From a virus (Duplodnaviria > Heunggongvirae > Uroviricota > Caudoviricetes): a stretch of 19,354 nucleotides of DNA. The stretch lies in the IMG/VR virus record IMGVR_UViG_2537561977_000019, positions 1-19,354 of that record. The stretch is one strand, 5' to 3'. Below the pieces are notes generated by a model. That model was not told the origin of the DNA. It was given only the letters and a program-made list of their open reading frames with translations, and searched no databases. Made by a program: the position numbers and the translations under genes. Shown piece after piece: positions 217-18,335 of this stretch (its first letter is position 1; each line of letters begins with the position of its first letter).

Positions 217-250
217 ATCCCGCCCCCCGACAGACCTGTGCTATCGGAAA

Positions 251-282
251 GAAAAAAGGCCATCAGCAAAACTCTGATGGCC
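251..282 (-). terminator. Intrinsic terminator on the minus strand, 36 nt upstream of the holin start
   Basis: Perfect 9-bp stem GGCCATCAG (258-266) / CTGATGGCC (274-282) with a 7-nt loop; on the minus strand the hairpin is followed by TTTTTT (complement of A252-A257). Confidence 0.6.
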
Positions 283-391
283 TGAATCACCTTTACCAAT
301 ATTGTATGAAAAAACACGCACGTCTAATTGACAATAATTTTCATTTCCATTAAAAAAGATCGCGTAGCATTCTTAATTCATGAGGAACTTT

Positions 392-457
392 ACCCGCCAG
401 CAATCTGAGTAGCGAAAGCTGTTCATCCCCAATGTTTTTGCTGGCGGGTCCTTTTTT
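392..457 (+). terminator. Long inverted repeat followed by T6 (terminator-like, plus strand)
   Basis: 12-bp perfect arms ACCCGCCAGCAA (392-403) / TTGCTGGCGGGT (438-449) enclosing a 34-nt loop, followed by CC and TTTTTT (452-457). Confidence 0.4.
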
Positions 458-895
458 CTACGGTCCTCCTCCCCGGAGGGGGCATTTCATTATTTTTCTA
501 ATCGTTACTGGTGAGAAGGCGGAAGAAAAAGCCAGTTCTTCGCCCCTAAATAACAGCATGATTCCAGTCCATGCAAAATCTGATTTCCAGCTCACACATA
601 CCGAGCGCTGTACAAAAAACCGCCAGCCAAGGCAGTTAAGAGTGTGTTCCCGGGGTTTGCTTAGAATATTTTGTAAGTTGTCCGAAGAGATATTTACAAC
701 ACCAGAATGATGAATCATCAGTCCCCTGCCAGAGGTTCACTACGTAACCTGACCGACAATGCACCATTCTGGTGCTGAAAAAAGAGCACTGGAACTGCAA
801 CAAAACAACATCACAGAACAGGAGATGGTAAGGAGTCAGACATTCCCACACAATATTGTGTCAGTGCAAATAACAACCTTCGTCTCAAATCTCGC

Positions 896-970
<75 letters not shown>

Positions 971-973
971 ATA

Positions 974-1049
<76 letters not shown>

Positions 1050-1051
1050 GC

Positions 1052-1128
1052 TGGCCCACCACCGAGGACTCGAACCTCGCACCGTCAACTTAGAAGGTTG
1101 ATGCTCTATCCGGATGAGCTAGTGGTGG
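1052..1128 (-). tRNA. tRNA-Arg (anticodon UCU)
   Basis: 77-nt cloverleaf: acceptor CCACCAC/GTGGTGG (unusual C1-G72), anticodon stem TCAAC/GTTGA with loop CTTCTAA, T-arm CGAGG-TTCGAGT-CCTCG, encoded CCA. Confidence 0.7.
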
Positions 1129-1129
1129 T

Positions 1130-1205
1130 TGGTGGCCCTTGCTGGACTTGAACCAGCGACCTGGCGATTATGAGTCGCTCGCTCTCACCACTGAGCTAAA
1201 GGGCC
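1130..1205 (-). tRNA. tRNA with CAU anticodon (Ile2/ileX-like, or elongator Met)
   Basis: Acceptor GGCCCTT/AAGGGCC, anticodon loop CTCATAA, T-arm GCTGG-TTCAAGT-CCAGC, encoded CCA. Close to my memory of E. coli ileX; Ile versus Met identity cannot be decided from sequence alone. Confidence 0.75.
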
Positions 1206-1245
1206 GATAACATAATGATAACGTTACAGAATAAATTCAGCAATA

Positions 1246-2304
1246 TCACTCTCTCTTTCTGATTGAATTCTGTACATCTCTTGCGGTCTGCTCAAAACGT
1301 TCAGCCTCCAGCTCGACACCAATTGCACGACGCCCCAGCGCCATCGCTGCTTTGACTGTCGAACCGGACCCCATGAAGAAATCTGCAACCAGGTCACCCG
1401 GACGACTGCTGGCGGTAATCATTTGCCGCAACATATCTGCCGGTTTTTCACAGGGATGTTTGCCCGGATAATACTGCACAGGCTTGTGCGTCCAGACATC
1501 CGTATAAGGAACGGCTGCCGATACGGAAAAATAACGCCGCAGGGATTTGTACTCTTCCAGCAGGCTGGCATACTGCCGGTTCAGCTCACTGTATGTGCTG
1601 ACCAGTTGGTGATGTGGCTTTTCCAGTTCACCCCGCTGATGTTTCTCTTCTGCCACCCGGGCAAACAGCACCTGAAGTTTTCTGTAATCATCCTCATTCG
1701 GCAACTGCCACTGACTGGCACCAAACCAGTGGGAAACCATATTTTTCTTACCTGTGGCTTCGGCAATTTGTTTTGCCGTTATACCCAGTTCGGCACGAGC
1801 ATCCCTGAAATACGATATCAGCGGTGCCATTATGTGCTGTTTGAGTTCCCTTTCTTTTGCCGCATAGCCGTCACTTTTGCCGCGATATGGCCCCTGGTAA
1901 TGTTCAGCAAACAGAACGCGCTCTGTGGCAGGAAAATATGCGCGCAGACTTTCTTTATTACACCCATTCCAACGTCCGGACGGCTTCGCCCAGATGATAT
2001 GGTTAAGCACGTTGAAACGTTCACGCATCATGATCTCAATATCAGATGCCAGGCGATGCCCACAGAACAGGTAAAGGCTTCCGGCAGGTTTCAACACCCG
2101 CCAGAACTGGGCCAGACAGTGGTCCAGCCACTTAAGGTAATCTTCGTCCCCTTTCCACTGATTGTCCCAACCGTTAGGTTTCACCTTGAAGTAAGGCGGA
2201 TCGGTAACAATCAGGTCAATGGAATCATCAGGCAGGGACTGAATAAAATGCAGGCAATCAGCGTTGATTAAATCAACACTGTTTATTTTTACAGTATTTT
2301 TCAT
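1246..2304 (-). CDS. DNA methyltransferase, beta-class (N6-adenine or N4-cytosine), 352 aa
   Basis: Catalytic motif DPPY near the N-terminus (LIVTDPPYF) and the SAM-binding motif FxGxG near the C-terminus (DFFMGSGSTVKAA). ATG at 2304; no strong SD. Confidence 0.8.
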   Translation of the reverse strand: MKNTVKINSVDLINADCLHFIQSLPDDSIDLIVTDPPYFKVKPNGWDNQWKGDEDYLKWLDHCLAQFWRVLKPAGSLYLFCGHRLASDIEIMMRERFNVLNHIIWAKPSGRWNGCNKESLRAYFPATERVLFAEHYQGPYRGKSDGYAAKERELKQHIMAPLISYFRDARAELGITAKQIAEATGKKNMVSHWFGASQWQLPNEDDYRKLQVLFARVAEEKHQRGELEKPHHQLVSTYSELNRQYASLLEEYKSLRRYFSVSAAVPYTDVWTHKPVQYYPGKHPCEKPADMLRQMITASSRPGDLVADFFMGSGSTVKAAMALGRRAIGVELEAERFEQTARDVQNSIRKRE

Positions 2305-2454
2305 GGATCAGTAAGCGTAACTCTGGTAGGCTCACTCTGCTTTTGCGCTAAAGCAGTGGGCCGTGGTTCGCTTGTGACCAGTAAGCATGAGCGAATGGCT
2401 GGCAGGTGCTACCAACACCCACCAGCCGCCCATTTTCACAGCAGGAAACCGCCA

Positions 2455-2682
2455 TTACTGGCAGCGTCTGAATTTATTCCCGTACCCGCCGTTATCCTTC
2501 GCCAGACCCGCCAAAACTAACTGAGTCAGTATTAACTGGCACCGGGCTTCGCTTACTCCGGTAGTTCTCGTCATCATGCGTGGCGTTACCCACTTGTCAG
2601 CAGGTAAGAAATGAAGGACTGCGGCGGCGGTTTCTGTCATATCTTGCTGTTTTAGCATGTCTTTTTCCCTTCTGGTTAACAT
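2455..2682 (-). CDS. Small hypothetical protein (67-75 aa)
   Basis: ORF just downstream of the tR'-like terminator. Alternative ATG at 2658 has an AAGGG SD about 9 nt upstream. No recognisable motif. Confidence 0.45.
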   Translation of the reverse strand: MLTRREKDMLKQQDMTETAAAVLHFLPADKWVTPRMMTRTTGVSEARCQLILTQLVLAGLAKDNGGYGNKFRRCQ

Positions 2683-2778
2683 GACATACCAATAACTCTT
2701 GTCTAAAAATCCAGCAAGATAAAAAGTCAGTATTCACGACCACCAGCGTGTTTACTGTACTGCACCAAGTTTACAGGT

Positions 2779-2803
2779 ACAAAAACCCGCTCAGTGGCGG
2801 GTT
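2779..2803 (-). terminator. tR'-like intrinsic terminator downstream of Q
   Basis: Stem CCCGC (2786-2790) / GCGGG (2797-2801) with loop TCAGTG; on the minus strand it is followed by TTTTTGT (complement of 2779-2785). Confidence 0.5.
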
Positions 2804-2849
2804 CTTAAATCTTATCAACGGTAGACATACAAAGCCCATCGTTGGGAAA

Positions 2850-2878
2850 ATCTTATCCATATTTTTTGAAAAATGCAA
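2850..2878 (-). promoter_or_regulatory. Candidate late promoter (pR'-like) just downstream of Q
   Basis: Minus strand reads TTGCAT (complement of 2873-2878), a 17-nt spacer, then TAAGAT (complement of 2850-2855). It sits about 50 nt upstream of the tR'-like hairpin. Confidence 0.35.
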
Positions 2879-2909
2879 GCATCATGTCGCCATCTTCGGC
2901 AAAAATCAT

Positions 2910-3662
2910 TTATCTTGTCACTTTTCTCAATTGTGTCTCTGCATATGCTTCTTCCTGCCAGCACTTTGTAACCAGTTTATCAATGACATCTGCATATCCT
3001 TTGTACCACTGATAATCCGTCAGATCCGGTACCAGCTTCTGGACATGATGCCGCGCCAGTGTGGTTGGTAAACGGCTAAACCGGTTTCCATTGCAACGCC
3101 CACAAATCTTATAAACAGGCGCACCATGAAGCCGGGTTCTTTTTTCATCCAGTACAATACCTTTCCCCTTACACCCTCTACACGCTGTGCTGACCTCTCC
3201 CTTACCATGACAATGCTGACATAGTTCCTTCACCCACTCTTCCTTGATAACAGATTCCCCGCTTCTGGAGTGTTTCACCACTTCGCGCAATACATTATGA
3301 AATCCAGTACCAGCACAATGCTCACAGCGAGCCTTACTTGCCGCAGACCTGGAATAATCAGCAAAGGCAAAATTCACAAGGTAAGGGATGATCTGTAACC
3401 GGGTTTCTTCACTCAATTTGTTCAATGTCGGGTTATCCAGTGCCATCGCGTAATTGAGCAGACCTTCAATCGCAAACTGAGGATCCTGAACACCAACTTT
3501 TGCCAGGAATAAGGCAAACCCAAGCGGTGCTTTCGACTGCACCATCCCCTGCGCAGCCATTACATCCGTAATTGTTAAACCACCAGAGCCTGTCGCCGGT
3601 GCGTCATCGCTCAATTTTGGAGATTTTGGGGAGTAATATTTCGGTAAGGCTTCAAGGTTCAT
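2910..3662 (-). CDS. Q-type late antiterminator (about 250 aa, Cys-rich)
   Basis: Several CxxC pairs (CEHCAGTG, CQHCHGKG, CRGCKGKG, CGRCNGN). It is the last gene before the pR'/tR'-like pair and the lysis genes. ATG at 3662 has a GGAG SD 7 nt upstream; the ORF track's upstream start at 3692 is TTG and overlaps the preceding gene. Confidence 0.7.
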   Translation of the reverse strand: MNLEALPKYYSPKSPKLSDDAPATGSGGLTITDVMAAQGMVQSKAPLGFALFLAKVGVQDPQFAIEGLLNYAMALDNPTLNKLSEETRLQIIPYLVNFAFADYSRSAASKARCEHCAGTGFHNVLREVVKHSRSGESVIKEEWVKELCQHCHGKGEVSTACRGCKGKGIVLDEKRTRLHGAPVYKICGRCNGNRFSRLPTTLARHHVQKLVPDLTDYQWYKGYADVIDKLVTKCWQEEAYAETQLRKVTR

Positions 3663-3675
3663 GCTCGTTCTCCAC

Positions 3676-4671
3676 TTACGCCAGCACGCCAATTGCCAGC
3701 GCGCGATCGATAAAACGAAATATCAGCTCCAGCTGGGAGCCATACTTCTCTTCAAATGCCACGGTATCCGCATGCAGCTCGTCGTGATGCTTTCTGCACA
3801 AAGGCAACACAAAGAGGTCATGCGCTTTTGTACCCATCCCGCCCTGACCGTGGCCTATCAGGTGGTGGGGATCATCAGCAGGCTTTCCACAACATGCACA
3901 CGGCTGCGTCTTAACCCAGCGCGTGTACTTTTCGTTAACCCAGCGGCGACGTTTTGGGCGTAACATAAAAGACTCCGGCGACTCCGGATCCACTTTCAGC
4001 GCCAGCACCTTTTTCGCTTTATCCTGGATGATGCTGGTGGCAGGAACCGAAGGCACAAGGTCACTTTCCCGGGTGACAGACGGCACAACAGGCTTCGGTA
4101 ATCTCAGTGCCTTACGGGCTGCACTTTCCGGTAAGGCATCCGCCAGGTCATTACGAACCAGCCACCAGCACAGTTCCGGCATTGTCACAACGTGACTATC
4201 ATCAAAACCGAGATCCCGACGCACGACAGACAACACCCAGCGGGCACAGTTATCCGTTGCCATTGATTCCAGCCGTTCCGTGAATTGATCGCGCAGCTGG
4301 TTATCGCAGTGCCAGCACAGACGGATTGCGCCCGGCGCGTGTCGCATTGTGGTCATGTTCTCGCTGTGCCAGTCGGAATGAGGCCACTGGCAGCCTTTTT
4401 CACGAAGTAACCAGCTTTCAAGACATTCCACCCCACCAGCACGACGGATCACTGCCTCATTGCGGAACACGGCCCGAACGGCAGGATCATCCGCCAGCGG
4501 TTGTGATGCCGCCGGAACGGCACCACTGGCGAAAGATGAATAACGTTCCGGCTCAGGCTCCAGCAGGACACGCCCCTGCATAAACAGGGGCATCAGCTCT
4601 GAACCTGGCCTGAACAATACGATCCCCATACGCGGGGCAATTTCAGGGGTCAGTAGTGCTCTCACGGTCAC
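3676..4671 (-). CDS. DUF968-family protein with an HNH-like C-terminal motif
   Basis: 331 aa; the C-terminus carries CACCGKPADDPHHLIGHGQGGMGTKAHDLFVLPLCRKHHDELH. GTG start at 4671 directly after the upstream stop. Typical nin-region gene. Confidence 0.7.
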   Translation of the reverse strand: MTVRALLTPEIAPRMGIVLFRPGSELMPLFMQGRVLLEPEPERYSSFASGAVPAASQPLADDPAVRAVFRNEAVIRRAGGVECLESWLLREKGCQWPHSDWHSENMTTMRHAPGAIRLCWHCDNQLRDQFTERLESMATDNCARWVLSVVRRDLGFDDSHVVTMPELCWWLVRNDLADALPESAARKALRLPKPVVPSVTRESDLVPSVPATSIIQDKAKKVLALKVDPESPESFMLRPKRRRWVNEKYTRWVKTQPCACCGKPADDPHHLIGHGQGGMGTKAHDLFVLPLCRKHHDELHADTVAFEEKYGSQLELIFRFIDRALAIGVLA

Positions 4672-4672
4672 C

Positions 4673-5482
4673 TCAATGAACGGTATCGAGCAGCTTTAAC
4701 AGCTCAGGGAATCGGGATTCGAAGAAATGCGGCTGCGTCTCGCGCGGATTTGCGGGACTGGTGATGTTCTTGCCAAACATGCAGCCTTTCGCTGTCAGCG
4801 ACCAGAATTTTTTGATGTTGTTAATCGCGGTACGGCTGTATCGTTCGCGCTGCTCGACGATCCCCAGCTTCACCATCTGGTGATATGCCTGATTAGCCGT
4901 CAGGCGGATACCATACTGCTTCAGCAGTGCACTCAGTGACAGCGTGGGGCGGCTTGAGCCATCAGGCGCGTCAGCAGGAGCATCAATGGCATAGCGCGGT
5001 GCCAGATTCGGTAAGCCAACAGCCTCCTGGAGTTTCTGACAGGCCCCAAGCACTGAAGAGTTAGACAGGTTTAACTCCCTGCGCATAAAGTCCAGCAGGA
5101 TCACGCCAGCCTGCATCTTGTCAGCAGCCTGTCCGGATAATTTTTCCGGTGCGCTGGTTACCATATCGAAAGTACGGATCACCTTCAGATGGAATGACGG
5201 GCTGATCCACATTGCATAGGCATACACCAGTTCCTTGCAGACATACGTTCCCCGTTCATTTCCCCCATGAATCACACTCACCGGGTCAACACCCAAATTC
5301 TGGGTGTTGGTCAATTCATGAACAAGCTCAACAGTTTGTTGGCTGGAAAGAAACTTTCCCGGCTCCTTGGTTCTGGCATTTGCACCAGATGCTACTGCTG
5401 CGCGATGCAGATCGTTCAGGCTGTAACGCCCATAAGCATCACGACGAACTTCAATACCATCAATGACCATCAGATTATTCAT
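4673..5482 (-). CDS. KilA-N domain protein
   Basis: N-terminus MNNLMVIDGIEVRRDAYGRYSLNDLHRAA is KilA-N-like. ATG at 5482 has an AGGAG SD 8 nt upstream; the longer ORF start at 5515 would overlap RusA. Confidence 0.7.
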   Translation of the reverse strand: MNNLMVIDGIEVRRDAYGRYSLNDLHRAAVASGANARTKEPGKFLSSQQTVELVHELTNTQNLGVDPVSVIHGGNERGTYVCKELVYAYAMWISPSFHLKVIRTFDMVTSAPEKLSGQAADKMQAGVILLDFMRRELNLSNSSVLGACQKLQEAVGLPNLAPRYAIDAPADAPDGSSRPTLSLSALLKQYGIRLTANQAYHQMVKLGIVEQRERYSRTAINNIKKFWSLTAKGCMFGKNITSPANPRETQPHFFESRFPELLKLLDTVH

Positions 5483-5501
5483 ACTTCGTTTCTCCTCTTG
5501 A

Positions 5502-5891
5502 TCAGGCGGCTGCACCCGCCGTTTTCTCGTACTTACTGATAGTGATCTCGACCTTCCCTTTCGGGATAACCGGTCCCCACTCCACCAGCATTCTTTTCAC
5601 CTGACTGTCGTCTTCCCACACACCCGCGTGGGTCAGGGCGTCAAACAGCGCCTTGTTATAGTTGTCCAGATCGCGGATCCGGTTATCCGGAGGAAACAAC
5701 ACGATCTCCACTGAAGCAGGTGCCGACGTTGGTTTCGGCAGACGACGTAACTGCTCAACTATTGCTGCGCACGCCGCGCTCTGGAATTTTCGCCCCGCCG
5801 AGCTTATCAGGCTCTTACCAGCAAACGCCCCTTTGTTGGAGTGTCGCCAGTACGTGTTCACGCTGGGCGGAAAAGGCAGGATCAGCTTCAT
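5502..5891 (-). CDS. rusA: RusA-family Holliday junction resolvase
   Basis: 129 aa with RusA hallmarks (LPFPPSVNTYWRH ... RDLDNYNKALFDALT ... DDSQV). ATGA overlap with the upstream gene. Confidence 0.85.
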   Translation of the reverse strand: MKLILPFPPSVNTYWRHSNKGAFAGKSLISSAGRKFQSAACAAIVEQLRRLPKPTSAPASVEIVLFPPDNRIRDLDNYNKALFDALTHAGVWEDDSQVKRMLVEWGPVIPKGKVEITISKYEKTAGAAA

Positions 5892-6214
5892 ACTTTCAGG
5901 TCCCTCTCATGTAACCAGTGGGTTGCACGCAGCCTTGCGTTTTCCTCACCGGCAAGCAGTGCGCGGATAATCCCGACCGCCTCGCTGTCGTCGTCCTTCA
6001 CCGCGGTATGAAGCGTTATCCCCCGGGCCACGCCACGCTTTATCGTGATGACGCCTTTTTTCTCCAGTGCGCGAAGATGCTCCACCGCTGCATTCACTGA
6101 ACGGTATCCCAGCATGGTTGCCACCTCCTGATTGGTTGGCGGGAAGCCACGTTCTTTCTGATAAGAAATCAGCATATCCAGCACCTGCTGCTGGCATTGA
6201 GTTAACGTCGTCAT
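5888..6214 (-). CDS. LexA-like winged-helix DNA-binding domain protein with no peptidase domain
   Basis: The first ~70 aa align with the LexA N-terminal domain (LTQCQQQVLDML ... PPTNQEVATMLGYRSVNAAVEHLRALEKKGVITI ... ARGITL). The 108-aa protein lacks the S24 Ser/Lys protease domain. ATGA overlap with the Dam gene. Confidence 0.7.
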   Translation of the reverse strand: MTTLTQCQQQVLDMLISYQKERGFPPTNQEVATMLGYRSVNAAVEHLRALEKKGVITIKRGVARGITLHTAVKDDDSEAVGIIRALLAGEENARLRATHWLHERDLKV

Positions 6215-6864
6215 GCCGCCATCTCCCTGACCAGTTTTTCCGCCTGCTGGCGAACCTGCGCCAGAAACGCCTCACCACATGCCTCAAGTTCATCGCGCCC
6301 GATGTAGCTGATTGCCGGTCCCTTCCAGGTCTTATCGAAAACAGCAATAGCACCAGCGAAGAAAGCGCCTGTCGGCACCTGCTTCTCATCCTTCGGGATA
6401 AACCAGGCAGGCAGTTCAAAACCAATACGCCCGCGAATAAAAGCAATATGGTCCGCATCTTCCGGCCACCACACTTCGCTGGTGGCAGCTTTGATCAGGA
6501 AAACATAGCGCCCACCCTTATCACGCATGGCACTGGCATGTTTCATGATGTAACGCATGCCGGTGATGTATTGCCCCTCATGCTGACTGGCGCGGCTGTA
6601 TGGGGGATTACCAAAGGCAGCCCCTTTAAGCTCCGCAAGACGTTCTGACCAGTCATGCGCCAGCGCGTTGTCTTCCGCCGTGTAATACGCAGCACATTTG
6701 GCGTTATCACCGTCAGTGAACAGATCCAGAACAAACGGGCCAAACAGGGTGTTAATTCCCCAGAAAATGTTGTCCGGCGTGCGCCACTGATCACCCACTT
6801 CCTTCAGTTCATGGGCTGGTTTGTTCCTCAGTTCCACCAGCTCCTGGCAATATTTATTACTCAT
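6211..6864 (-). CDS. Phage Dam-family N6-adenine DNA methyltransferase
   Basis: NPPY motif (AAFGNPPYS) in a ~217-aa protein. ATG at 6864 overlaps the upstream stop (TAATG); an alternative GTG lies at 6897. Confidence 0.8.
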   Translation of the reverse strand: MSNKYCQELVELRNKPAHELKEVGDQWRTPDNIFWGINTLFGPFVLDLFTDGDNAKCAAYYTAEDNALAHDWSERLAELKGAAFGNPPYSRASQHEGQYITGMRYIMKHASAMRDKGGRYVFLIKAATSEVWWPEDADHIAFIRGRIGFELPAWFIPKDEKQVPTGAFFAGAIAVFDKTWKGPAISYIGRDELEACGEAFLAQVRQQAEKLVREMAA

Positions 6865-7352
6865 TAAGCCCCCACGTAATTCCCTGACAGATACCACTCA
6901 TCACCCGATACAGCGCGCTTGCTGCTTTTCCGTAAACACTGCTCACGACGCGCCAGAAAATTGTTTCGTTCTGGCTGGGAGTGGCTTTCACGGAATGCCG
7001 CCATCCACACCGTTGCAGCACGACGGTATAAGCCCCTGGACTCCAGTTCTTCCGCCTGGCGGGTCAGGCACAAAATCACCCGGGGATCGTTAGTGCCGAC
7101 ATAGAAATTGCGCACAGGTCTGGTTTCACGAACTGGTTGTGGTTCCGGCTCCTGCGCTCTCTCAGTCAGGCGTGGGAAATGTCTGCGTGTATCTCCTTCA
7201 CAACGGTGAGCCACACGCCCACTCTGACGTAACTTGCTTGCTGACTGCAGAACGCGCTGCCGTGAGTAACCTGCAAAAGCATCCGCAATGTCTCCGGAAG
7301 TACACCCCGGATGGGCTTCAATGAATTTCTGAACGTCATTCAAAAGACTCAT
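6864..7352 (-). CDS. Hypothetical phage protein (about 162 aa)
   Basis: ORF starts 3 nt after the O-like stop (ATG 7352, AGGGG SD) and is coupled to the downstream Dam gene. Arg-rich; no confident family. Confidence 0.5.
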   Translation of the reverse strand: MSLLNDVQKFIEAHPGCTSGDIADAFAGYSRQRVLQSASKLRQSGRVAHRCEGDTRRHFPRLTERAQEPEPQPVRETRPVRNFYVGTNDPRVILCLTRQAEELESRGLYRRAATVWMAAFRESHSQPERNNFLARREQCLRKSSKRAVSGDEWYLSGNYVGA

Positions 7353-7354
7353 GA

Positions 7355-8173
7355 TCACCCCCTGAATCCTGCCGGGATCTGGCTGTAGTCCACGTTGTCG
7401 TAACTGGCTTTGAAGTACGGGTCCTCGCGTCTGGCTGCAGATACCGCAGGAACTTCCCAGGATTCTTCGAAATGACGATCCGGACCAAAGAACGTGACAG
7501 CCTGTTTCACAAATTGTGTGCCGCTGTTACCCATCGCAGATACCCAGCCCGCGTAGCGTTTCACACCTTCCAGCATGGTTTCGGGGTTTACCCCCTCATT
7601 CAAACGGGCTTTCCAGGCTTTGAAGGCTGCAGATTTTGAATTGCCACCAGCACGTTTGGGATAGGCCAGCCATGCCTGCTCAAACTCCGGAGAGTATTCC
7701 GGTCGGTTTGAACTAACTCGCACAGACTCATCAGCAGATGCACCAACAGCTATTGGTTCATTGACTGGTTCTTTGACTGGTTCAAAAGAGTGACTGGTTC
7801 TGGGTGAATCTCCTGCACTACCCCCTAGTGCAACTCCTGCACTACCTGGTGAATTTGCTGCACCAGATAGTGAATTATTTGCACTACCCCCTAGTGAATC
7901 TCCTGCACCATCCAGATGAAGGAGATAGATATTACTTGAGTTACCTTTTTCACCTTTCCGGGTGACTTTTTTTACCAGCCCGGACTCACAAAGGGCCGCA
8001 ATATGATTCATCACAGAACGTTTGCTAATCTCGCACTGGTCAGCAATATGCTGGTAGCTGGGCCAGCACTCACCCTGATCGCTGGCATTATCAGCCAGCT
8101 TGATCAGAACCAGTTTTCGCAATGGATTACCCACTCGAATTTTCATCGCTTTAACCATCAGCTCCATACTCAT
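7355..8173 (-). CDS. Replication initiator, O-like (N-terminal winged-helix, Gly/Ser/Ala-rich linker)
   Basis: N-terminus LRKLVLIKLADNASDQGECWPSYQHIADQCEISKRSVMNHIAALCESGLVKK resembles phage replication-initiator HTH domains. The linker is encoded by repetitive DNA, as iterons are in lambda O. ATG at 8173 in an ATGA overlap. Confidence 0.65.
   Translation of the reverse strand: MSMELMVKAMKIRVGNPLRKLVLIKLADNASDQGECWPSYQHIADQCEISKRSVMNHIAALCESGLVKKVTRKGEKGNSSNIYLLHLDGAGDSLGGSANNSLSGAANSPGSAGVALGGSAGDSPRTSHSFEPVKEPVNEPIAVGASADESVRVSSNRPEYSPEFEQAWLAYPKRAGGNSKSAAFKAWKARLNEGVNPETMLEGVKRYAGWVSAMGNSGTQFVKQAVTFFGPDRHFEESWEVPAVSAARREDPYFKASYDNVDYSQIPAGFRG
7761..7910. repeat. Iteron-like direct repeat cluster inside the O-like gene (candidate origin)
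   Basis: TGACTGGTTC occurs three times (7762-7771, 7774-7783, 7791-7800); GTGAATCTCCTGCAC twice (7804-7818, 7894-7908); TGCACTACCCCCTAGTG twice (7814-7830, 7880-7896); CTCCTGCACTACC also at 7835-7847. Confidence 0.5.
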
Positions 8174-8394
8174 GCTGCACCTCCGAGATGCTTCATGTTT
8201 TTTCCGGAGCGAAAGGCTATAAGCGGCATACTGACGCGGTAATTACGGCCCAGCGGTTCACAAATCACCTTCTGACATTCACGGTCAACCAGGCTAACAC
8301 GTAGAACATGCCCTGCAGGCGTGGTGTACCACTGACCCGGACGAGGACAACGGAAAGTCTGATTGGTAAAACGTTTGAAAATATTCCGGATCAT
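8170..8394 (-). CDS. Small hypothetical protein (74 aa), possibly DUF4222-like
   Basis: ATGA overlaps at both ends (8391-8394 and 8170-8173) place it in the coupled early-right operon. The family guess is from a weak motif memory only. Confidence 0.45.
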   Translation of the reverse strand: MIRNIFKRFTNQTFRCPRPGQWYTTPAGHVLRVSLVDRECQKVICEPLGRNYRVSMPLIAFRSGKNMKHLGGAA

Positions 8395-9554
8395 TTACGC
8401 CCCCTTACCTCTGAAGGGTTCAGCGACAAATTTATGAGACTGGCCAGTAGCGCCGCGTCGTTGATGCGGTCATACAGACTTACAGCCAGCGGGGATTCGG
8501 CTTTTGCCAACATGGGATAAAGCTGCTGCAGCCAGACCTGATGAATTGATGAAATGTAGGAATAGAGAACGCTGGCGTTATGTGCAACGTCGCTCAGTAC
8601 AGAGGGATTTGAAAGCTGTTTCTCCATCTGGTTAAAGGCATTGATGTATGCCTCTTTGAACCGGGCAGCACGTTTACCCGTGAAACCCATAGCAAGAAAC
8701 GCAAAGCCGTCGCGGGTTATTTGATAGCAAGGAAGTTTGCGAGTACCGCCGTTGGGCTGGCGTACCAAAATTGATGTCTCCGCAAAATTGCGGGCACAAA
8801 ACTCTGGAGAACAATCCAAAATGCGGATCTTTTTCAGAACATCGTCATGACGTTTAGAGAAGAAGTCAGCAACAGCCAAAGAAGATGTAACAGCCTGACC
8901 ATCAACGATGGCAATTTCAGGTTGAGAGAGGGTTGGGAGAGTAGTCATGGTGACAGCCCCGGTAGTCAGTTTTTTAGAAAACTCACCACATGGGACGCCA
9001 ATCACAGAGGTGGTGAGACGTACAGGGTTGGCGTTACCGGAGACTACCGAACCCGGCCCGACCGAAGTCGGCCCTGTACGCCCCACCATAATTTGGGCGT
9101 AGCAATGCTCATGACACGAAAAAACCGCATGAGCGCGGTTATGCTCAGTAATCAATTTCAGGACGCCAATCCCGGCACCCGTTTTATAAGGTGCCTGAAC
9201 AGTGTAACGTCCCGGAATGGCAGAATCAATGTGCTGGTGGTCCTTCACACTCAACAAAATCACGCCTGAATTTCCACAAAGGACTAAAGCACTCATGCGG
9301 GTAGTCTTTGCGAAGATAGATAACGCGCTGTGTTTCTGGCTCCCAACGAATAACATGAACATAAAGTCCTCTTCCGTCACGAAACCAGCGGTTAAGTTCC
9401 TGCACAACTCGCCCCCCACAGTCAGGTAAAGTTCTCTGTGGTTACTTACAGCCAGGTGATTTGGTAATCTGCATTCATGCCGTAACAACAGGTGTGCAGC
9501 GACACTGACCACCAGCTGTTGCGACAAACGGTTATTTGCCGTTAAACTGTTCAT
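8391..9554 (-). CDS. Rha-family regulatory-domain protein with a ~200-aa N-terminal extension of unknown function
   Basis: Residues ~205-330 match the Rha pattern (AVADFFSKRHDDVLKKIRIL ... RDGFAFLAMGFTGKRAARFKEAYINAFNQME). ATG at 9554 overlaps the upstream stop (ATGA) with a GGAG SD; the frame stays open for 387 codons. An internal ATG at 8948 would give an Rha-only protein. Confidence 0.6.
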   Translation of the reverse strand: MNSLTANNRLSQQLVVSVAAHLLLRHECRLPNHLAVSNHRELYLTVGGELCRNLTAGFVTEEDFMFMLFVGSQKHSALSIFAKTTRMSALVLCGNSGVILLSVKDHQHIDSAIPGRYTVQAPYKTGAGIGVLKLITEHNRAHAVFSCHEHCYAQIMVGRTGPTSVGPGSVVSGNANPVRLTTSVIGVPCGEFSKKLTTGAVTMTTLPTLSQPEIAIVDGQAVTSSLAVADFFSKRHDDVLKKIRILDCSPEFCARNFAETSILVRQPNGGTRKLPCYQITRDGFAFLAMGFTGKRAARFKEAYINAFNQMEKQLSNPSVLSDVAHNASVLYSYISSIHQVWLQQLYPMLAKAESPLAVSLYDRINDAALLASLINLSLNPSEVRGRK

Positions 9555-10135
9555 GCGTTAGTTTCTCCACAACCAGAAGCAATCGACGCCACGACGCCCG
9601 GAGCTGCACACTCGCGGGCGTTACTCTTTTCCGGCGCACAAAAAACACGAAATAACAGTGTTAAATGCTCCTGCCACTTCGCCATTACTTGGTAGCTGTT
9701 CTCTTCGATTTGCTCACGCTCAGCTTGGTCAATAACTCCATCAGCAGTTGCCTTGCGTAAGTACTGGGAATGCTTGCCAATCCATTCTATTGACTCCATC
9801 AGCCGCTGATTAATGTCACCATTGTCAATGTCATCAATGACCACCAGCGGCACAAACACCCCATTACTACGACGGGCTATTGCATCTGTTACATGCCTGG
9901 TACCACTGGCATCCTGTAAAACCATGGCCCACTCAAGTGGAAAAATTTGATCCCCACCGCTACGCAGTCTGTTATGCAATTGATCTTTTGCTGGGGTGAT
10001 ATCATCAGATTTATACAAACCAAGAATTTCTGCTGCTTCCTCATAGCCATGAGGTAAATCAGCAATCGTTCTTCGTATTGCTGCCACCAGCCATGCTGGT
10101 TGTTTATCAACTTTCCATTCAGGTTCTTTACCCAC
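9551..10135 (-). CDS. Regulator in the cII position (possibly YdaT-like), about 195 aa
   Basis: GTG at 10135 has a GAGGA SD 7 nt upstream and lies 28 nt after the cro stop. The ORF track's upstream ATGs (10246, 10213) have no SD and would overlap cro. Function is inferred from position only. Confidence 0.45.
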   Translation of the reverse strand: MGKEPEWKVDKQPAWLVAAIRRTIADLPHGYEEAAEILGLYKSDDITPAKDQLHNRLRSGGDQIFPLEWAMVLQDASGTRHVTDAIARRSNGVFVPLVVIDDIDNGDINQRLMESIEWIGKHSQYLRKATADGVIDQAEREQIEENSYQVMAKWQEHLTLLFRVFCAPEKSNARECAAPGVVASIASGCGETNA

Positions 10136-10163
10136 GGTTAATTCCTCATTTCTGTGGTTACGT

Positions 10164-10427
10164 TTACGCAGCTGAACCGCTAACTTTTGAATAGCACTCA
10201 GGTAATCCATCATTTGGATTGGGGTAAATATCAGGACGCAGTTCATGAGGGGTCACGGACCAGTTTCCCAACTCACAAAGTTGTAAAACCCGTTCTGACG
10301 GGACTTGATTGTTAATTACCCAATTAGCGACGGATTGAGTGGACTTAAAACCAAAGCGACGGGCTACTTCAGATAAAGATTTTCCCGCAGCTTTTACTGC
10401 TTTCTCTGTGTAGTTTTGAGATGACAT
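10164..10427 (-). CDS. Cro-like HTH regulator (YdaS-like)
   Basis: 87 aa with an HTH segment (LSEVARRFGFKSTQSVANWV), divergent from the CI-like gene; GAGGAG SD before the ATG at 10427. Confidence 0.75.
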   Translation of the reverse strand: MSSQNYTEKAVKAAGKSLSEVARRFGFKSTQSVANWVINNQVPSERVLQLCELGNWSVTPHELRPDIYPNPNDGLPECYSKVSGSAA

Positions 10428-10533
10428 ACCTTTCTCCTCTGAAATTCAGAGGGATAATGCTACTTAAAATAGCAAAATGCAACTACTTAAAATAGAAATG
10501 ACTAGCGTATGTGATGTGAGTAATCTTCTACCT
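10428..10533. promoter_or_regulatory. Immunity-region operator/promoter interval (OR with divergent pR and pRM)
   Basis: 106-bp interval between divergent cro-like and cI-like starts. Contains two exact 13-bp direct repeats CTACTTAAAATAG (10460-10472, 10483-10495). Minus strand carries TTGCAT-17-CATTAT as a pR-like element. Confidence 0.5.
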
Positions 10534-11238
10534 ATGGTAGAAGAACAGAAGTATCCAGATTTCGCCAAGAGACTAAACGAGCTAATGACAAACAAGGGAA
10601 TTTCTGTCACCCAACTCAAAAGTCTTGTGGGCGTTACATATGAAATGGCGCGGCGATACACAATCGGCGCTGCGAAGCCTCGTGCCTCTGTCATGAATAA
10701 ACTTGCATTGGCTCTGGGGGTATCAGCTTCATATTTAGAATATGGTGTTGGCGAGAGAGAAGGATGTAAGGAAATGACAAGCATCCCCAATCCAACAAAA
10801 CCCGATGTATACAGGATAGAAGTTTTGGATCTTAGCGTTAGCGCAGGACCTGGGACCTATATGCTTTCAGACTATGTTGATGTGCTCTACGCCATTGAGT
10901 TCACAACAGAACATGCCCGTTCTCTTTTCGGCAACCGTTCTCAGGATGATATTAAGGTTATGACTGTAAATGGCGATAGTATGTCCCCTACTCTCGTTTC
11001 CGGAGACCGACTGTTTGTCGACATTTCTGTTCGTCACTTCCAGACTGATGGAGTTTACTCTTTCGTTTACGGTAAGACTTTTCATGTCAAACGTCTTCAA
11101 ATGCAAGGTGACAAGCTAGCCGTTCTTTCGGATAACCCCGCCTATGAGAAATGGTATATCGATGAAAAATCGCAGGATCAGCTTTATGTAATGGGCAAGG
11201 CGTTGATTCACGAATCTATAAAATACAACCGATTGTAA
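10534..11238 (+). CDS. CI-like prophage repressor (HTH plus S24 LexA-like peptidase domain)
   Basis: N-terminal HTH (FAKRLNELMTNKGISVTQLKSLVG) and C-terminal S24 motifs (VNGDSMSPTL ... GDRLFVD ... KRL). Start is uncertain: in-frame ATGs at 10477, 10498 and 10534, none with an SD, consistent with a leaderless pRM transcript. Confidence 0.8.
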   Translation: MVEEQKYPDFAKRLNELMTNKGISVTQLKSLVGVTYEMARRYTIGAAKPRASVMNKLALALGVSASYLEYGVGEREGCKEMTSIPNPTKPDVYRIEVLDLSVSAGPGTYMLSDYVDVLYAIEFTTEHARSLFGNRSQDDIKVMTVNGDSMSPTLVSGDRLFVDISVRHFQTDGVYSFVYGKTFHVKRLQMQGDKLAVLSDNPAYEKWYIDEKSQDQLYVMGKALIHESIKYNRL

Positions 11239-11282
11239 AACTCAATCCTTTCAGGATTAAAAGATCTAAAAGGATAATAATA

Positions 11283-11690
11283 ATGAAATCTGAACTATTT
11301 CATAACGAAGCAAATTCAGAAATTATCACCGCAGATGAGTTTATTGATTTCATAAACTCTTTCAAAAAGCCTTTAATTTGCCAAATTTGCGGAAATCAAT
11401 CATGGAGTGTAGTCGGTACTCTAGAACTTGAAGTTGAAGACAATCAGCCAAAACATCACGTAATCGAAGTTCTCAGCTATGCCCAATACAAACCTGAAAC
11501 TGATAGCGCTATAAATTATCCTGGTGGTATGCCGCTGTTTCGAATCACCTGTGATCACTGTGCACATGTACTTCTTTTTTCTTATAAAAAAGCTAGATCA
11601 TTGATCCAAAAAAGAAAAATGAAAAAGAAGAGGATGGGAAATGACGCGACCTTATCTCAGAGCAGTACCAAACTGTGGATCTGGTATTGA
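11283..11690 (+). CDS. Hypothetical Zn-ribbon protein (135 aa) in an AT-rich cassette co-oriented with cI
   Basis: ATG at 11283 with an AAGGA SD, 45 nt after the cI stop. Two CxxC pairs (CQICGN and CDHC) and a basic C-terminus. AT-rich composition by eye. Confidence 0.55.
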   Translation: MKSELFHNEANSEIITADEFIDFINSFKKPLICQICGNQSWSVVGTLELEVEDNQPKHHVIEVLSYAQYKPETDSAINYPGGMPLFRITCDHCAHVLLFSYKKARSLIQKRKMKKKRMGNDATLSQSSTKLWIWY

Positions 11691-12273
11691 TAAGTGTGAC
11701 CTTTACCCCAATGTTAAGAACAGGCTGCGCGTCGGTATAGAAGAAATGTATACTGATTTTATCGAATCCGCAGATGAAACTTACAAAACTGATGGGGGAA
11801 ATAAAATGTCATCAGTTAGTCGAGAAGAAATTCAAGCACTTTTAGCTGCCAATAAAGCAGAAATGGAGTCCATTGCATCCTCTATTAGAGTTGAAATGGC
11901 TTTATCTCGCGAGAACACAAACGTTCAGCTAGCATCTCTAAATTCAGCCATCAATTCTATCTCTTCGAAAATCGAAGGCAAAATGGACAGTGTTGACGGG
12001 GATGTGAAGGCCATCAATGGTAGATTCGAAGGTATACAAGGCCAAATTACTGGAATAAATACAGCCATTAGTGGTATTCAATCTGGAATTTCTACCAGAC
12101 TTGCTATTTTTGGAGTTATCATTGCGGTCATAGTTGCATTACCTAGCATAATTTCTGCTTTTAAAGATACTTCGCCAGTAGTTCAACCAGTTACACAACA
12201 ACCAAGTGTTAAACATCTCAACCAAGAACCAATTACTCCACAAGTATTACCTCCGCAGGGAAAAGCAAACTAA
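11641..12273 (+). CDS. Hypothetical coiled-coil protein with a single C-terminal transmembrane helix
   Basis: Two candidate starts, each with a good SD: 11641 (GAGGA, overlaps the previous ORF by 50 nt) and 11806 (GGGGGA). Heptad-like Ser/Ile/Gly repeats, then LAIFGVIIAVIVALPSIISAF and a Pro/Gln-rich tail. Confidence 0.55.
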   Translation: MTRPYLRAVPNCGSGIDKCDLYPNVKNRLRVGIEEMYTDFIESADETYKTDGGNKMSSVSREEIQALLAANKAEMESIASSIRVEMALSRENTNVQLASLNSAINSISSKIEGKMDSVDGDVKAINGRFEGIQGQITGINTAISGIQSGISTRLAIFGVIIAVIVALPSIISAFKDTSPVVQPVTQQPSVKHLNQEPITPQVLPPQGKAN

Positions 12274-12297
12274 ACCGGCTTTATGCCGGTTTTTTTC
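12274..12297 (+). terminator. Intrinsic terminator ending the cI-linked cassette
   Basis: Stem ACCGGC (12274-12279) / GCCGGT (12285-12290), loop TTTAT, followed by TTTTTTC. Confidence 0.75.
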
Positions 12298-12399
12298 TAT
12301 ACAAACGCCCCCTCTTTGTCTTGAATCACATCACAACACATTTAAAAAACATTTTAAATTCAAAGCATTAAACGCATCAACGCATATCAAACAAATTAT

Positions 12400-12448
12400 C
12401 TACTTTTAGTTGTTGATTTTTGCTACTTTTGGTAGCAGAATTATTTTA
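12400..12448 (+). promoter_or_regulatory. Candidate pL/OL: plus-strand promoter overlapping operator-like sites
   Basis: TTGCTA (12420-12425), 16-nt spacer, TATTTT (12442-12447). Overlaps CTACTTTTGGTAG (12423-12435) and sits next to CTACTTTTAG (12400-12409), both sharing the CTACTT...TAG ends of the OR repeats. Confidence 0.4.
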
Positions 12449-12520
12449 ACGACAACGAACAGGCAGGACGCCCACGAAGTAGCCGCCTGGGGCATATGAA
12501 GTCCAGGATGATTCGTTAGC

Positions 12521-12547
12521 AACAAAAAAGCGCCCTACAGGACGCTT
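12521..12547 (-). terminator. Intrinsic terminator for the convergent minus-strand gene
   Basis: Stem AAGCG / CGCTT with a 10-nt loop, followed on the minus strand by TTTTTTGT. Confidence 0.45.
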
Positions 12548-12585
12548 AGCTCTTTAACAATCTGGATATCCACAACAGTAGTAAT

Positions 12586-13077
12586 CTACAGATTGCCGTT
12601 AAGTTTTCTGGACAACTCCTCAATGGATGGAGGCGATACGTAATCCGGATTTTTATTCATCAGAAACTTATTTTCACAGTGGAGGCACCTGCTTTTATGA
12701 AAAAGCTCATCTTCGCTAACCGGGAATGGTTGAAGTATCGATACTATCTTTTGTCCAAAACATTTTGGGCAAAGATGCATGGTTATGCTGCCACCGTTCA
12801 CGATTACCTCCTTCGAGTATACAAAAGTACCCGACTCAAGTTGGTTAAGGATATAGCCTTCCGTCTGAGCCTCAAAGTTTTCGAATTCTGCAATTTTAGC
12901 TTTGAGAGAAGCATTTATTTCTTGATAAGAGCCCACCAGTTCAACGAGAGACACGCATTCGCGCTGAATAGACGCAAGCTTTGAGTTCAGCTCACCAATA
13001 GCCGCATTTACTTCAGCTTGAGTTTTTGCCTCGTTCATTAGTTTTGCAATCTGGGCTGTTTCACGAATAGCCGTCAT
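12586..13077 (-). CDS. Hypothetical coiled-coil protein with a C-terminal Zn-ribbon (about 163 aa)
   Basis: AT-rich ORF convergent on the cI cassette. Likely start ATG 13077 or GTG 13101 (AAGAG SD); the longer ORF-track N-terminus is Arg/Pro-rich and judged non-coding. C-terminus HLCPKCFGQ ... CLHCENKF. Confidence 0.5.
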   Translation of the reverse strand: MTAIRETAQIAKLMNEAKTQAEVNAAIGELNSKLASIQRECVSLVELVGSYQEINASLKAKIAEFENFEAQTEGYILNQLESGTFVYSKEVIVNGGSITMHLCPKCFGQKIVSILQPFPVSEDELFHKSRCLHCENKFLMNKNPDYVSPPSIEELSRKLNGNL

Positions 13078-13115
13078 TGCTGCCGTTAATTCAGCGATCA
13101 CATTGAATACTCTTA

Positions 13116-13169
13116 TTGTTGTTGGGGATATCCAGATTAACCGAATCCTTGTTGTTGGGGAATAACCAG
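13116..13169. repeat. Tandem direct repeat TTGTTGTTGGGGA-TA-CCAG (two copies)
   Basis: 13116-13135 TTGTTGTTGGGGATATCCAG and 13149-13169 TTGTTGTTGGGGAATAACCAG, just upstream of the minus-strand gene start. Confidence 0.4.
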
Positions 13170-13388
13170 GTCCACCTCGCCTGATGTGGCTAAAAGCAGG
13201 CACATAACAGCTAAGTATTTTCAACCAGAGAGAATCCTTAGCGTTGTGGTGAATGCGGCTCAGCGCACGCGGGTTAAGGTTGAGGCTGACAGTCGACCTT
13301 CTGTGGATACCCACCCGTCTGGTGTGCAACCTTCGCCAGGCACCGGGAGGCACCCGGCACCACAACTTTATGCTGTGTGTAGTCCTGG

Positions 13389-13433
13389 CGGTACCAGTTT
13401 GTACCCTTGCTTCCGGCTGGTACCGTCCTTTTT
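13389..13433 (+). terminator. Terminator-like hairpin with T-tract in the early-left leader
   Basis: 9-bp arms CGGTACCAG (13389-13397) / CTGGTACCG (13417-13425), then TCCTTTTT. About 140 nt upstream of the first early-left gene. Confidence 0.4.
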
Positions 13434-13570
13434 ACAAAACAGAGAAGAGCATCACCGGACGACGGGCTCATAACCCAATCCATCCGGGCGGCTGCCACCG
13501 CAGGTGTTCTTCTCTGTTTTGTGGAGAAACCAACCGGCCTTGCAGGGTCGATATGATGAGGAGCAGCAAA

Positions 13571-13933
13571 ATGGCTAGCGAACGCAGTACTGATGTGCAG
13601 GCATTTATCGGGGAGTTGGACGGCGGCGTATTTGAAACCAAAATCGGCGCAGTTCTCAGTGAAGTCGCTTCAGGTGTGATGAACACGAAAACCAAAGGTA
13701 AGGTCTCACTCAACCTGGAAATCGAACCATTTGATGAGAACCGTGTGAAAATCAAACACAAACTCTCATATGTTCGCCCGACTAACCGCGGGAAAATTTC
13801 CGAAGAAGACACCACCGAAACGCCGATGTATGTCAATCGCGGTGGTCGCCTGACTATTCTGCAGGAAGACCAGGGACAATTACTGACTCTTGCCGGTGAA
13901 CCTGACGGAAAACTCCGCGCAGCAGGTCATTAA
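13571..13933 (+). CDS. Hypothetical early-left protein, YfdP-like (about 120 aa)
   Basis: ATG 13571 with a GAGGAG SD; the longer ORF-track N-terminus is GC-rich leader. Family name is a tentative match based on size and gene order. Confidence 0.5.
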   Translation: MASERSTDVQAFIGELDGGVFETKIGAVLSEVASGVMNTKTKGKVSLNLEIEPFDENRVKIKHKLSYVRPTNRGKISEEDTTETPMYVNRGGRLTILQEDQGQLLTLAGEPDGKLRAAGH

Positions 13934-13998
13934 TATCGTTCTTAATTAACCGATTATTTATCTCATCACTGAATATCTTTATATAGTGAGGACTTATT

Positions 13999-14823
13999 AT
14001 GTCTCAGAACTTAGACGCAACCGCAATTAATCAAATCCATGCCCTTATTTCTGCTCAGGGTGTTAATGAAATTATCAGTAAGATTGGTGCCGATGCTGTG
14101 GCATTACCTGAAAATTTCCGCATTCATGATCTGGAAAAATTTAATTTAAATCGCTTCCGTTTCCGTGGTGCGCTTTCCACTGCCAGCATCGATGACTTTA
14201 CCCGTTATTCTAAAGATCTTGCAGATGAAGGCACCCGCTGCTTTATCGATGCCGATAATATGCGTGCCGTCAGTGTGCTTAACCTGGGTACTATTGATGA
14301 ACCAGGTCACGCAGATAACACTGCCACTCTCAAACTGAAAAAGACAGCACCGTTCTCTGCTCTGTTGTCTGTTAACGGCGAGCGTAACTCCCAGAAGTCA
14401 CTGGCAGAATGGATTGAAGACTGGGCCGACTACCTTGTGGGCTTTGATGCTAATGGTGACGCCATTCAGGCAACCAAAGCGGCTGCGGCGATCCGTAAAA
14501 TCACAATTGAAGCGAACCAGACCGCTGATTTTGAAGATAATGACTTCAGCGGCAAACGCTCCCTGATGGAGTCTGTCGAAGCGAAGACCAAAGACATTAT
14601 GCCTGTGGCATTTGAATTTAAATGCGTTCCGTTTGAAGGTCTGAAAGAACGTCCGTTTAAATTACGCCTCAGCATTATCACTGGCGATCGTCCTGTACTG
14701 GTTCTGCGCATTATTCAGCTGGAAGCGATGCAGGAAGAAATGGCTAACGAATTTCGTGATCTGCTTGTTGAGAAATTCAAAGACAGCAAAGTAGAAACCT
14801 TTATTGGTACTTTCACCGCCTGA
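13999..14823 (+). CDS. YfdQ-like (DUF2303) protein, 274 aa
   Basis: ATG 13999 with a GAGGA SD. Size and neighbours (HD-domain gene next) resemble the yfdPQRS prophage block; family recalled, not computed. Confidence 0.6.
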
Positions 14824-16862: not shown

Positions 16863-16863
16863 T

Positions 16864-18326: not shown

Positions 18327-18335
18327 ATAGAATAT

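Follow-up and report, generated by a model that had tools for sequence, protein, structure and literature searches.

An initiator-only replication module in an SfV-type lambdoid prophage and the DnaT-like tail of its initiator

Introduction

Of 314 lambdoid phages of the Enterobacteriales counted in a recent report on phage LLS (PMC12315714, Genome Res 2025), 34 carry a homolog of the lambda initiator O only; according to the sections of that report that deal with them, none has been studied experimentally and their replication is "not yet understood". The initiator-only arrangement is thus already published and unexplained there. The same module is found in SfV, cdtI, several Stx2 phages and the K-12 prophage CPS-53 (yfdO/yfdN). 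Here the replication initiator and the surrounding early-right operon are described for a 19,354-nucleotide (nt) stretch of the IMG/VR record IMGVR_UViG_2537561977_000019 (Caudoviricetes; positions 1-19,354), hereafter called the window. The region is the early-right operon of a lambdoid prophage of the SfV / mEp460 / cdtI / CPS-53 type, and is in itself an ordinary, widely distributed prophage module whose missing loader is already in print.

Two questions left open in the pertinent sections of recent papers, how initiator-only lambdoid phages load DnaB (PMC12315714) and how DnaT recruits DnaB/DnaC (PMC13377028), meet in a tail of 7-20 residues that is common to DnaT and these initiators. The presence of this tail follows the kind of partner loader, being found where the loader is of the E. 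coli DnaC type or where there is none.

Results

The initiator of the window, a protein of 272 amino acids (aa), is followed by no recognizable gene for a helicase or its loader (Table 1). Among 30 selected open reading frames (ORFs) of the window, no Pfam match to helicase, helicase-loader or primase families was obtained, including IstB_IS21, Bac_DnaA, DnaB_C and the lambda P family. The window and the complete 44.5-kilobase (kb) genome of the 95%-identical phage mEp460 were searched in six frames by tblastn, the queries being lambda P, a phage DnaB, E. coli DnaC and two DnaC-like proteins of phages; the best E was 0.13, and a loader in an unannotated frame was rejected on this result. The mEp460 annotation lists neither a loader nor a helicase gene. 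No P-type loader sequence, PF06992-like or lambda-P-like, was found downstream of the initiator in the window. The absence of a P-, DnaC- or DnaB-like gene after the initiator, as claimed in a preliminary description made from the sequence, was therefore upheld for both the window and complete mEp460. With an origin-binding initiator and no helicase, loader or primase in either sequence, the locus belongs to the initiator-only ("O only") lambdoid module. Several carriers of this module (mEp460, SfV, cdtI, the PhiR phages and Ayreon) were deposited as phages with hosts, for example E. coli K12, ECOR13 and E. coli C.

What follows the initiator was surveyed in 144 IMG/VR loci carrying its C-terminal helical domain, here called domain X, each with at least 1.5 kb of downstream sequence. 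Neither a loader nor a helicase gene was present in 84 of these loci; an IstB_IS21/DnaC-like loader followed by a DnaB-like helicase was present in 42, and a DnaC-like loader alone in 18. The loader gene begins 2-20 nt past the initiator stop codon in 59 of the 60 loader loci, with a 3-nt overlap in the remaining one. Over their full length the phage loaders are 32% (ASU11 type) or 50% (POCJ13 type) identical to E. coli DnaC, which makes host DnaC a plausible substitute. Two initiators (L153 and L109) share an N-domain and linker 96-97% identical to those of the window and are then followed by DnaC-like and DnaB-like genes; the X domains of this DnaC-plus-DnaB class, these two included, are 79-84% identical to that of the window. 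Since such near-identical initiators have both genes downstream, the window type looks, on sequence comparison, as if it belonged to an initiator/DnaC/DnaB family but had no loader-helicase cassette. In Citrobacter and Klebsiella, homologs with 68-70% identity likewise precede DnaC-like and DnaB-like genes. A Salmonella homolog ending in IPTGFRG is initiator-only, with a PerC-dam arrangement downstream.

The last nine residues of the window initiator, SQIPAGFRG, are identical at eight positions to the last nine of E. coli DnaT (SQIPPGFRG). The E. coli dnaT gene lies immediately upstream of dnaC, and its product ends in ...SEPDSQIPPGFRG, also written ...RDVNTVSEPDSQIPPGFRG; this tail is nearly invariant among DnaT orthologs. 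The resemblance is longer in the POCJ13 initiator, which matches 14 of the last nineteen DnaT residues. A profile built from the tail-bearing phage initiators matched the DnaT chains 6aep, 2ru8 and 9zbt of the Protein Data Bank (PDB) through the last 25 residues only, with E from 2e-4 to 2e-3. The label "primosomal protein I" that some of these phage proteins bear in databases is accounted for by the shared tail.

The form of the initiator's end was found to divide the 144 surveyed loci by the genes that follow. All 84 initiator-only loci end in ...SQIP(A/E/T/V)GFRG (IPxGFRG or a near variant), and all 17 loci with a close DnaC homolog, 50% identical to E. coli DnaC, end in ...SEPDTEIPPGFRG, that is, in IPPGFRG. 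The 43 loci with a divergent loader and their own DnaB all end in ...KLTF or ...NFNW. An independent scan of IMG/VR for ORFs ending in IPPGFRG-stop gave 79 loci with at least 2.5 kb downstream; an E. coli-type dnaC was present in 39, and the stored locus contained no DnaC-, DnaB- or P-like gene in the other 40. None of the 79 carried its own dnaB or P. The tail was seen on at least four unrelated initiator architectures: on domain X joined to various N-domains, on HTH_36 combined with a lambda-O-type C-domain, on DUF1376-like proteins, on lambda-O-N-like proteins, and on fusions that include a true DnaT C-domain. One pair of initiators, L247 and L253, is 99.7% identical; L247 occurs without dnaC and L253 with it.

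Among these architectures the SfII "O" (L166, 2161-3102) is a chimera: an HTH_36 N-domain is joined to a C-domain of the lambda-O type, 31% identical to residues 186-270 of lambda O, and the last 24 residues are those of the window initiator. It is an oddity in that an initiator-only locus retains a lambda-O-type P-binding domain with no P gene downstream. In another IMG/VR genome (L263) and in similar loci, a phage-type N-domain is fused to a seemingly complete DnaT C-terminal domain with its tail (...IPPGFRG), and the locus has no adjacent dnaC.

The initiator is 98.9% identical to SfV orf39 and belongs to a family of 5430 homologs, the commonest type of which is that of the window, a single 90%-identity cluster of 2852 sequences. 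Its N-domain matched Pfam HTH_36 and DnaD_N and did not match Phage_rep_O (PF04492), the family on which lambda O itself scored 6e-36. Searches with Foldseek using the AlphaFold2 model of the initiator returned winged-helix proteins at E of about 0.01-0.08, including the DnaD N-domain and plasmid initiators; with the whole 272-aa model these generic winged-helix matches were the only ones, and a PDB sequence search with the initiator returned nothing meaningful. The linker (residues 91-157) was predicted with low confidence and is presumably disordered. Its length varies among homologs, which have 250, 272, 294 or 302 aa. When domain X was predicted again with 52 diverse sequences, the predicted local distance difference test (pLDDT) score was 94-98 over residues 11-90 of the 121-aa construct. 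There are 4515 cluster representatives of the domain. The N-domains to which it is joined are of the HTH_36, Phage_rep_O, DUF1376 and Lin1244_N families. An equation of domain X with the DnaT C-terminal domain was rejected on present evidence, with hhalign at 3-4% and a PDB profile search that reached DnaT through the tail alone. The three-helix domain by which DnaT binds single-stranded DNA (PF17948) was not detectable in the initiator.

A candidate origin was located within the initiator gene itself, where five iterons fall in the part that codes for the linker and three copies of a shorter repeat adjoin them (Table 1). No perfect DnaA box was present in the window; one-mismatch sites numbered 8 against 4.7 expected, which is not significant, and none lay near the iterons. 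DnaA-dependent initiation was rejected on these grounds.

The 162-aa protein encoded directly after the initiator had been put forward in the preliminary description as the only candidate for an unconventional loader or adaptor, an idea that did not hold up. The protein matched Pfam PerC (PF06069) with 38.9 bits against a curated cut-off of 22.6 (1e-9), over residues 100-153 of the 164-aa ORF translation that starts at GTG 7358 (2 is subtracted from these numbers for the 162-aa protein). It further matched PHROG 1324, "transcriptional activator", at 2e-78 and NCBIfam ANR_neg_reg with 22.5 bits, under the 32-bit cut-off, and it is annotated in relatives as a PerC family regulator or YfdN. Judging from a weak match to a MarR-type PHROG, its N-terminal half looks winged-helix-like, and its C-terminal half looks PerC/ANR-like. 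PerC was its sole Pfam match, with no AAA+, IstB_IS21 or lambda-P family found; tblastn with three DnaC-type proteins was negative, BLASTP against lambda P gave E=0.2 over 8 residues and so no similarity, and a PDB sequence search returned nothing meaningful.

The gene for this protein is also dispensable to the arrangement. It follows the window-type initiator in 75 of the 84 initiator-only loci and is missing in the other 9, where the initiator adjoins dam directly; it is deleted in phage cdtI and interrupted by IS629 in Stx2a_WGPS2. An unrelated 140-aa protein occupies the same position in other initiator-only modules, and initiator-only genes of two further architectures (SfII O and L224) have a PerC-like gene behind them as well. 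By its sequence the 162-aa protein is classed as a PerC-type regulator of the nin region, outside the replication machinery. The preliminary description would have given up the loader idea if the protein fell into a family unrelated to replication and a loader were encoded elsewhere in the prophage; the family assignment came out in that way, but no loader was found elsewhere.

The DNA of the operon is 95-97% identical to the same region in mEp460, 1720a-02, Lys8385Vzw, phiSTEC1575-Stx2k and many Stx2a/Stx2c phages. In Lys8385Vzw the same 585-nt cII-position gene has been annotated. Less certainty attaches to the start of the 387-aa Ash/Rha ORF, as its first 60 codons lie outside the best PHROG profile, which begins at residue 61; its overlapping ATG was nevertheless chosen by the annotators of mEp460 and Lys8385Vzw. 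The 74-aa ORF is 53% identical to a small ORF upstream of the ASU11 initiator, and so travels with the initiator in both loader-less and DnaC-plus-DnaB contexts.

The seven junctions from the cII-like gene to rusA were read directly from the minus-strand sequence. The chain of stop-start overlaps that had been described for this stretch was confirmed, with every listed junction present: five are ATGA, one is TAATG, and one is a 2-nt gap, or a GTGA overlap if the 162-aa gene starts at the alternative GTG 7358, the start type from which K-12 yfdN is annotated. Most of the overlapping starts have a Shine-Dalgarno-like G-rich run (GGAG or GGGGG) 5-13 nt before them, within the 3' end of the preceding gene. 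Tight coupling of the operon is supported, as the ordinary translational coupling of early phage genes. Overlaps of 1, 4 and 8 nt also occur all along the mEp460 annotation, so that the pattern is real but reflects general phage gene packing.

Table 1 Genes, domains, repeats and junctions of the early-right operon, listed leftwards from the repressor (window positions)
Feature	Position	Strand	Evidence or remark
S24-type repressor gene	10477-11238	+	early-right operon runs leftwards from it on the minus strand
Cro-like gene	10427-10164	-	
cII-position gene, YmfL / CII(CP76)-like regulator, 194 aa from GTG 10135	9551..10135	-	NCBIfam phage_reg_YmfL 8e-54; Pfam Phage_CP76; PHROG 101
cII-like / Ash-Rha junction	9554-9551	-	ATGA
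Ash + Rha fusion regulator or antirepressor, 387-aa ORF	8391..9554	-	Pfam Phage_ASH residues 117-212; Phage_pRha 223-312; PHROG 821 residues 61-387
Ash-Rha / 74-aa ORF junction	8394-8391	-	ATGA
74-aa ORF	8170..8394	-	PHROG 1153 (1e-45); ATGA overlap with both neighbours
74-aa ORF / initiator junction	8173-8170	-	ATGA
272-aa replication initiator, SfV orf39 / CPS-53 YfdO family	7355..8173	-	PHROG 270 "replication initiation protein" 4e-88; Pfam HTH_36
N-terminal winged-helix origin-binding domain (predicted), residues 1-89	7907..8173	-	AlphaFold2 block-mean pLDDT about 67-92
Candidate origin, five iterons of about 21-24 bp (GTGCAnnAnnTTCAC type)	7800..7910	.	repeat search families D1 + D2; Tandem Repeats Finder (TRF) period 21/24
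Three copies of 11-12-nt repeat (GAACCAGTCA core, coding strand), adjoining iterons	7754..7801	.	repeat search D3 + D8; TRF period 12
C-terminal helical domain X, residues about 160-240	7454..7696	-	no Pfam model, no solved relative
DnaT-like tail SQIPAGFRG	7358..7384	-	8/9 residues identical to the last nine of E. coli DnaT
Initiator / 162-aa gene junction	TGA 7357-7355, ATG 7352	-	2-nt gap
162-aa PerC-family protein (YfdN homolog)	6864..7352	-	Pfam PerC; PHROG 1324
162-aa gene / dam junction	shared A at 6864	-	TAATG
Phage Dam-type N6-adenine methyltransferase	6211..6864	-	Pfam Dam 1e-45
dam / LexA-domain gene junction	6214-6211	-	ATGA
108-aa protein, LexA DNA-binding domain only	5888..6214	-	Pfam LexA_DNA_bind 3e-19
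LexA-domain gene / rusA junction	5891-5888	-	ATGA
RusA Holliday-junction resolvase	5502..5891	-	Pfam RusA 5e-15; PHROG 34
rusA / KilA-N gene junction	ATG 5482	-	19-nt gap; Shine-Dalgarno-like GAGGAG stretch before ATG
Beyond rusA, leftwards: KilA-N gene, DUF968/HNH gene, Q, second DNA methylase	KilA-N from ATG 5482		

Several further features of the window were recorded. From about 8000 to 9500 the AT skew is strongly positive and the GC skew near zero compared with the flanking genes. Three methyltransferase-like genes lie within the 19 kb, an N6_N4 DNA methylase (1246-2304, minus strand), the phage Dam, and a small ORF resembling S-adenosylmethionine (SAM)-dependent methyltransferases (15793-16299, plus strand), for which the Pfam matches are weak. 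The early-left operon contains homologs of two CPS-53 genes, YfdQ (DUF2303; 13999-14823, plus strand) and YfdR, an HD-domain 5'-deoxynucleotidase (14940-15488, plus strand). The K-12 YfdR binds DnaA, and overexpression of yfdQ-yfdT inhibits chromosomal initiation, according to PMC4776307; a loader-less phage that also interferes with host initiation would be worth joint examination.

Directly downstream of the repressor, in a rexAB-like position, are two genes (11283-12273, plus strand) with a GC content of about 39% that match PHROGs 4293 and 5820; in the product of the second, a coiled-coil region is present along with a hydrophobic segment at the C-terminus, and the pair may be an exclusion or moron cassette. 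At the window end a 175-aa protein with a SocA/Panacea antitoxin domain (18827-19354, minus strand) overlaps by 4 nt a downstream 156-aa protein (18360-18830, minus strand) with no family match. From their sequences the two look like a Panacea-type toxin-antitoxin pair in a low-GC patch. Neither this pair nor that at the rexAB-like position gave a match in PADLOC. Between 12586 and 13933 long ORFs overlap on both strands, and their starts clearly extend too far; the minus-strand ORF is covered by PHROG 1244 only at residues 94-244, the plus-strand ORF by PHROG 204 only at residues 101-225. With this partial coverage, roughly 13085-13550 is left without a confident coding assignment.

Discussion

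The reading we favour, with a probability of roughly 0.55, is that the initiator recruits the host DnaB-DnaC complex, directly or through the PriA/DnaT primosome, by means of its DnaT-like end. The initiator would bind the iterons within its own gene, so that a single gene would make up the whole replication module, and its C-terminal module (the tail, perhaps together with domain X) would perform the combined job of lambda O and P. With the host complex recruited directly or by the PriA/DnaT pathway, the phage would need no loader gene of its own. In this mechanism the IPxGFRG tail would serve as a portable docking peptide for E. coli-type DnaC or for DnaB-DnaC. A broader proposal, which we hold more tentatively and at somewhat less than even odds, is that the IPxGFRG of DnaT and of unrelated phage initiators may be a portable docking motif for E. 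coli-type DnaC, DnaB-DnaC or PriA, the acquisition of which would let a lambdoid phage discard its loader and helicase genes.

Several points weigh against recruitment through the tail. Contact of the tail or domain X with DnaC, DnaB or PriA is inferred here from sequence, the match of the window tail to DnaT extends over 9 residues only, and few independent lineages underlie the correlation of tail with partner. Co-inheritance with the genes downstream may be all that the tail reflects, because a mosaic boundary directly precedes it and SfII has the window's tail as well as the PerC-dam block behind it. In DnaT itself, removal of residues 154-179 weakens cooperative binding of single-stranded DNA modestly (PMC4132743). 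In the sections of the 2026 preprimosome paper that concern recruitment (PMC13377028), it is the N-domain of DnaT, and not the tail, that is proposed as a possible recruiter of DnaB/DnaC, and the recruitment is said to remain a step that "remains unknown".

A different partner for the tail has to be considered, namely PriA in place of DnaC. The initiator would then open the origin and hand it over to the PriA-PriB-DnaT restart primosome, which would load DnaB with host DnaC. In the cryo-electron microscopy structures described in 2026 (PMC13377028), a conserved hydrophobic interface joins PriA to the C-terminal domain of DnaT, and some phage initiators, such as that of L263, carry this complete domain along with the tail. 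The portions of the same paper that describe the interface, however, do not state that the last DnaT residues form it, and it is with dnaC-type genes that the tail associates genomically, so we regard a PriA route as rather unlikely. The tail might alternatively be functionally irrelevant, merely linked to a downstream mosaic block, with domain X alone contacting DnaB or DnaC as plasmid initiators do. Domain X is indeed conserved in all three genomic contexts regardless of the tail, and is the part held in common with initiators that have phage DnaC-like neighbours; the near-invariance of the tail in DnaT orthologs and its recurrence on unrelated initiators that have no domain X make this explanation improbable.

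Two further explanations were weighed. That the 162-aa PerC-family protein is an unconventional loader or adaptor working with the initiator is suggested by its gene's occupying the P/DnaC position, coupled to the initiator by the 2-nt gap or GTGA overlap, and by the recurrence of a PerC-like gene there after SfII O, L224 and 75 of the 84 window-type initiators. The above-cut-off PerC match, the lack of AAA+, IstB_IS21, lambda-P-family or lambda P similarity, the losses of the gene in 9 of 84 loci, cdtI and (by IS629) Stx2a_WGPS2, and its replacement by the unrelated 140-aa protein make such a role very unlikely. Replication defects in initiator-only prophages, or their dependence on a loader supplied by a second prophage in the same host (Rac YdaV, for instance), are likewise scarcely to be expected. 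Most loci in the survey are predicted prophages that may or may not be viable, and CPS-53 of K-12 holds only an initiator remnant, but complete genomes with the module were deposited as phages with listed hosts, the type is very abundant, and PMC12315714 counts 34 such phages among 314.

Recruitment of the host complex through the DnaT-like end, if true in the form of a docking motif, would explain the "O-only" phages and, conversely, would show by which part DnaT passes the primosome on to DnaB-DnaC. Many Stx2-converting phages use this module, so such a dependence on the host could bear on the replication of toxin-encoding phages.

Comparison with known systems

The closest relatives, SfV (orf38-orf39-orf40), mEp460 (gp42-gp44), cdtI (orf45-orf46) and CPS-53 (yfdO-yfdN-yfdM), have the same gene order at a DNA identity of 95-99%. 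Nothing substantial distinguishes them from the window: the immunity region and the number of iterons vary, and cdtI is without the PerC-like gene. CPS-53 keeps only the 3' end of the initiator gene (yfdO), yfdN (PerC-like) and yfdM (a dam remnant), with yfdP-yfdT on the other side. The O-only module of phage LLS, as presented in the module's description in PMC12315714, resembles the window in having a single origin-binding protein with no helicase or loader; the passages that describe it make no mention of a DnaT-like tail. The modules with an initiator and a DnaC-like (and in part a DnaB-like) gene, those of ASU11, POCJ13, BcepIL02 and of Klebsiella and Citrobacter prophages, share domain X, some of them with the same N-domain at 96-97% identity; they differ in encoding their own IstB_IS21 loader, with or without DnaB, and those with their own DnaB are without the DnaT-like tail.

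Compared with lambda O/P, the window is alike in its position after cII, its translational coupling and an origin of iterons within the initiator gene, flanked by the coding regions for an N-terminal domain that binds DNA and a C-terminal part that binds the partner, but differs in having an HTH_36 N-domain in place of Phage_rep_O and a C-domain unrelated to that of lambda O. The 162-aa protein shares with the small regulators PerC, Pch and ANR a PerC domain above the Pfam cut-off, and differs from them by an extra winged-helix-like N-terminal half of ~95 residues. With E. coli DnaT (primosomal protein i) the initiator shares the extreme C-terminus, SQIP(P/A)GFRG, and its gene is placed like the gene upstream of dnaC, whereas the three-helix domain of DnaT is not detectable in it. 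The combination of HTH_36 with a DnaT C-terminal motif has been described before in the chromosomal protein DopC (Brezellec 2017, PMC5509034), which differs from the window initiator in having no iterons, in being chromosomal and in being paired with a lambda-P-like protein.

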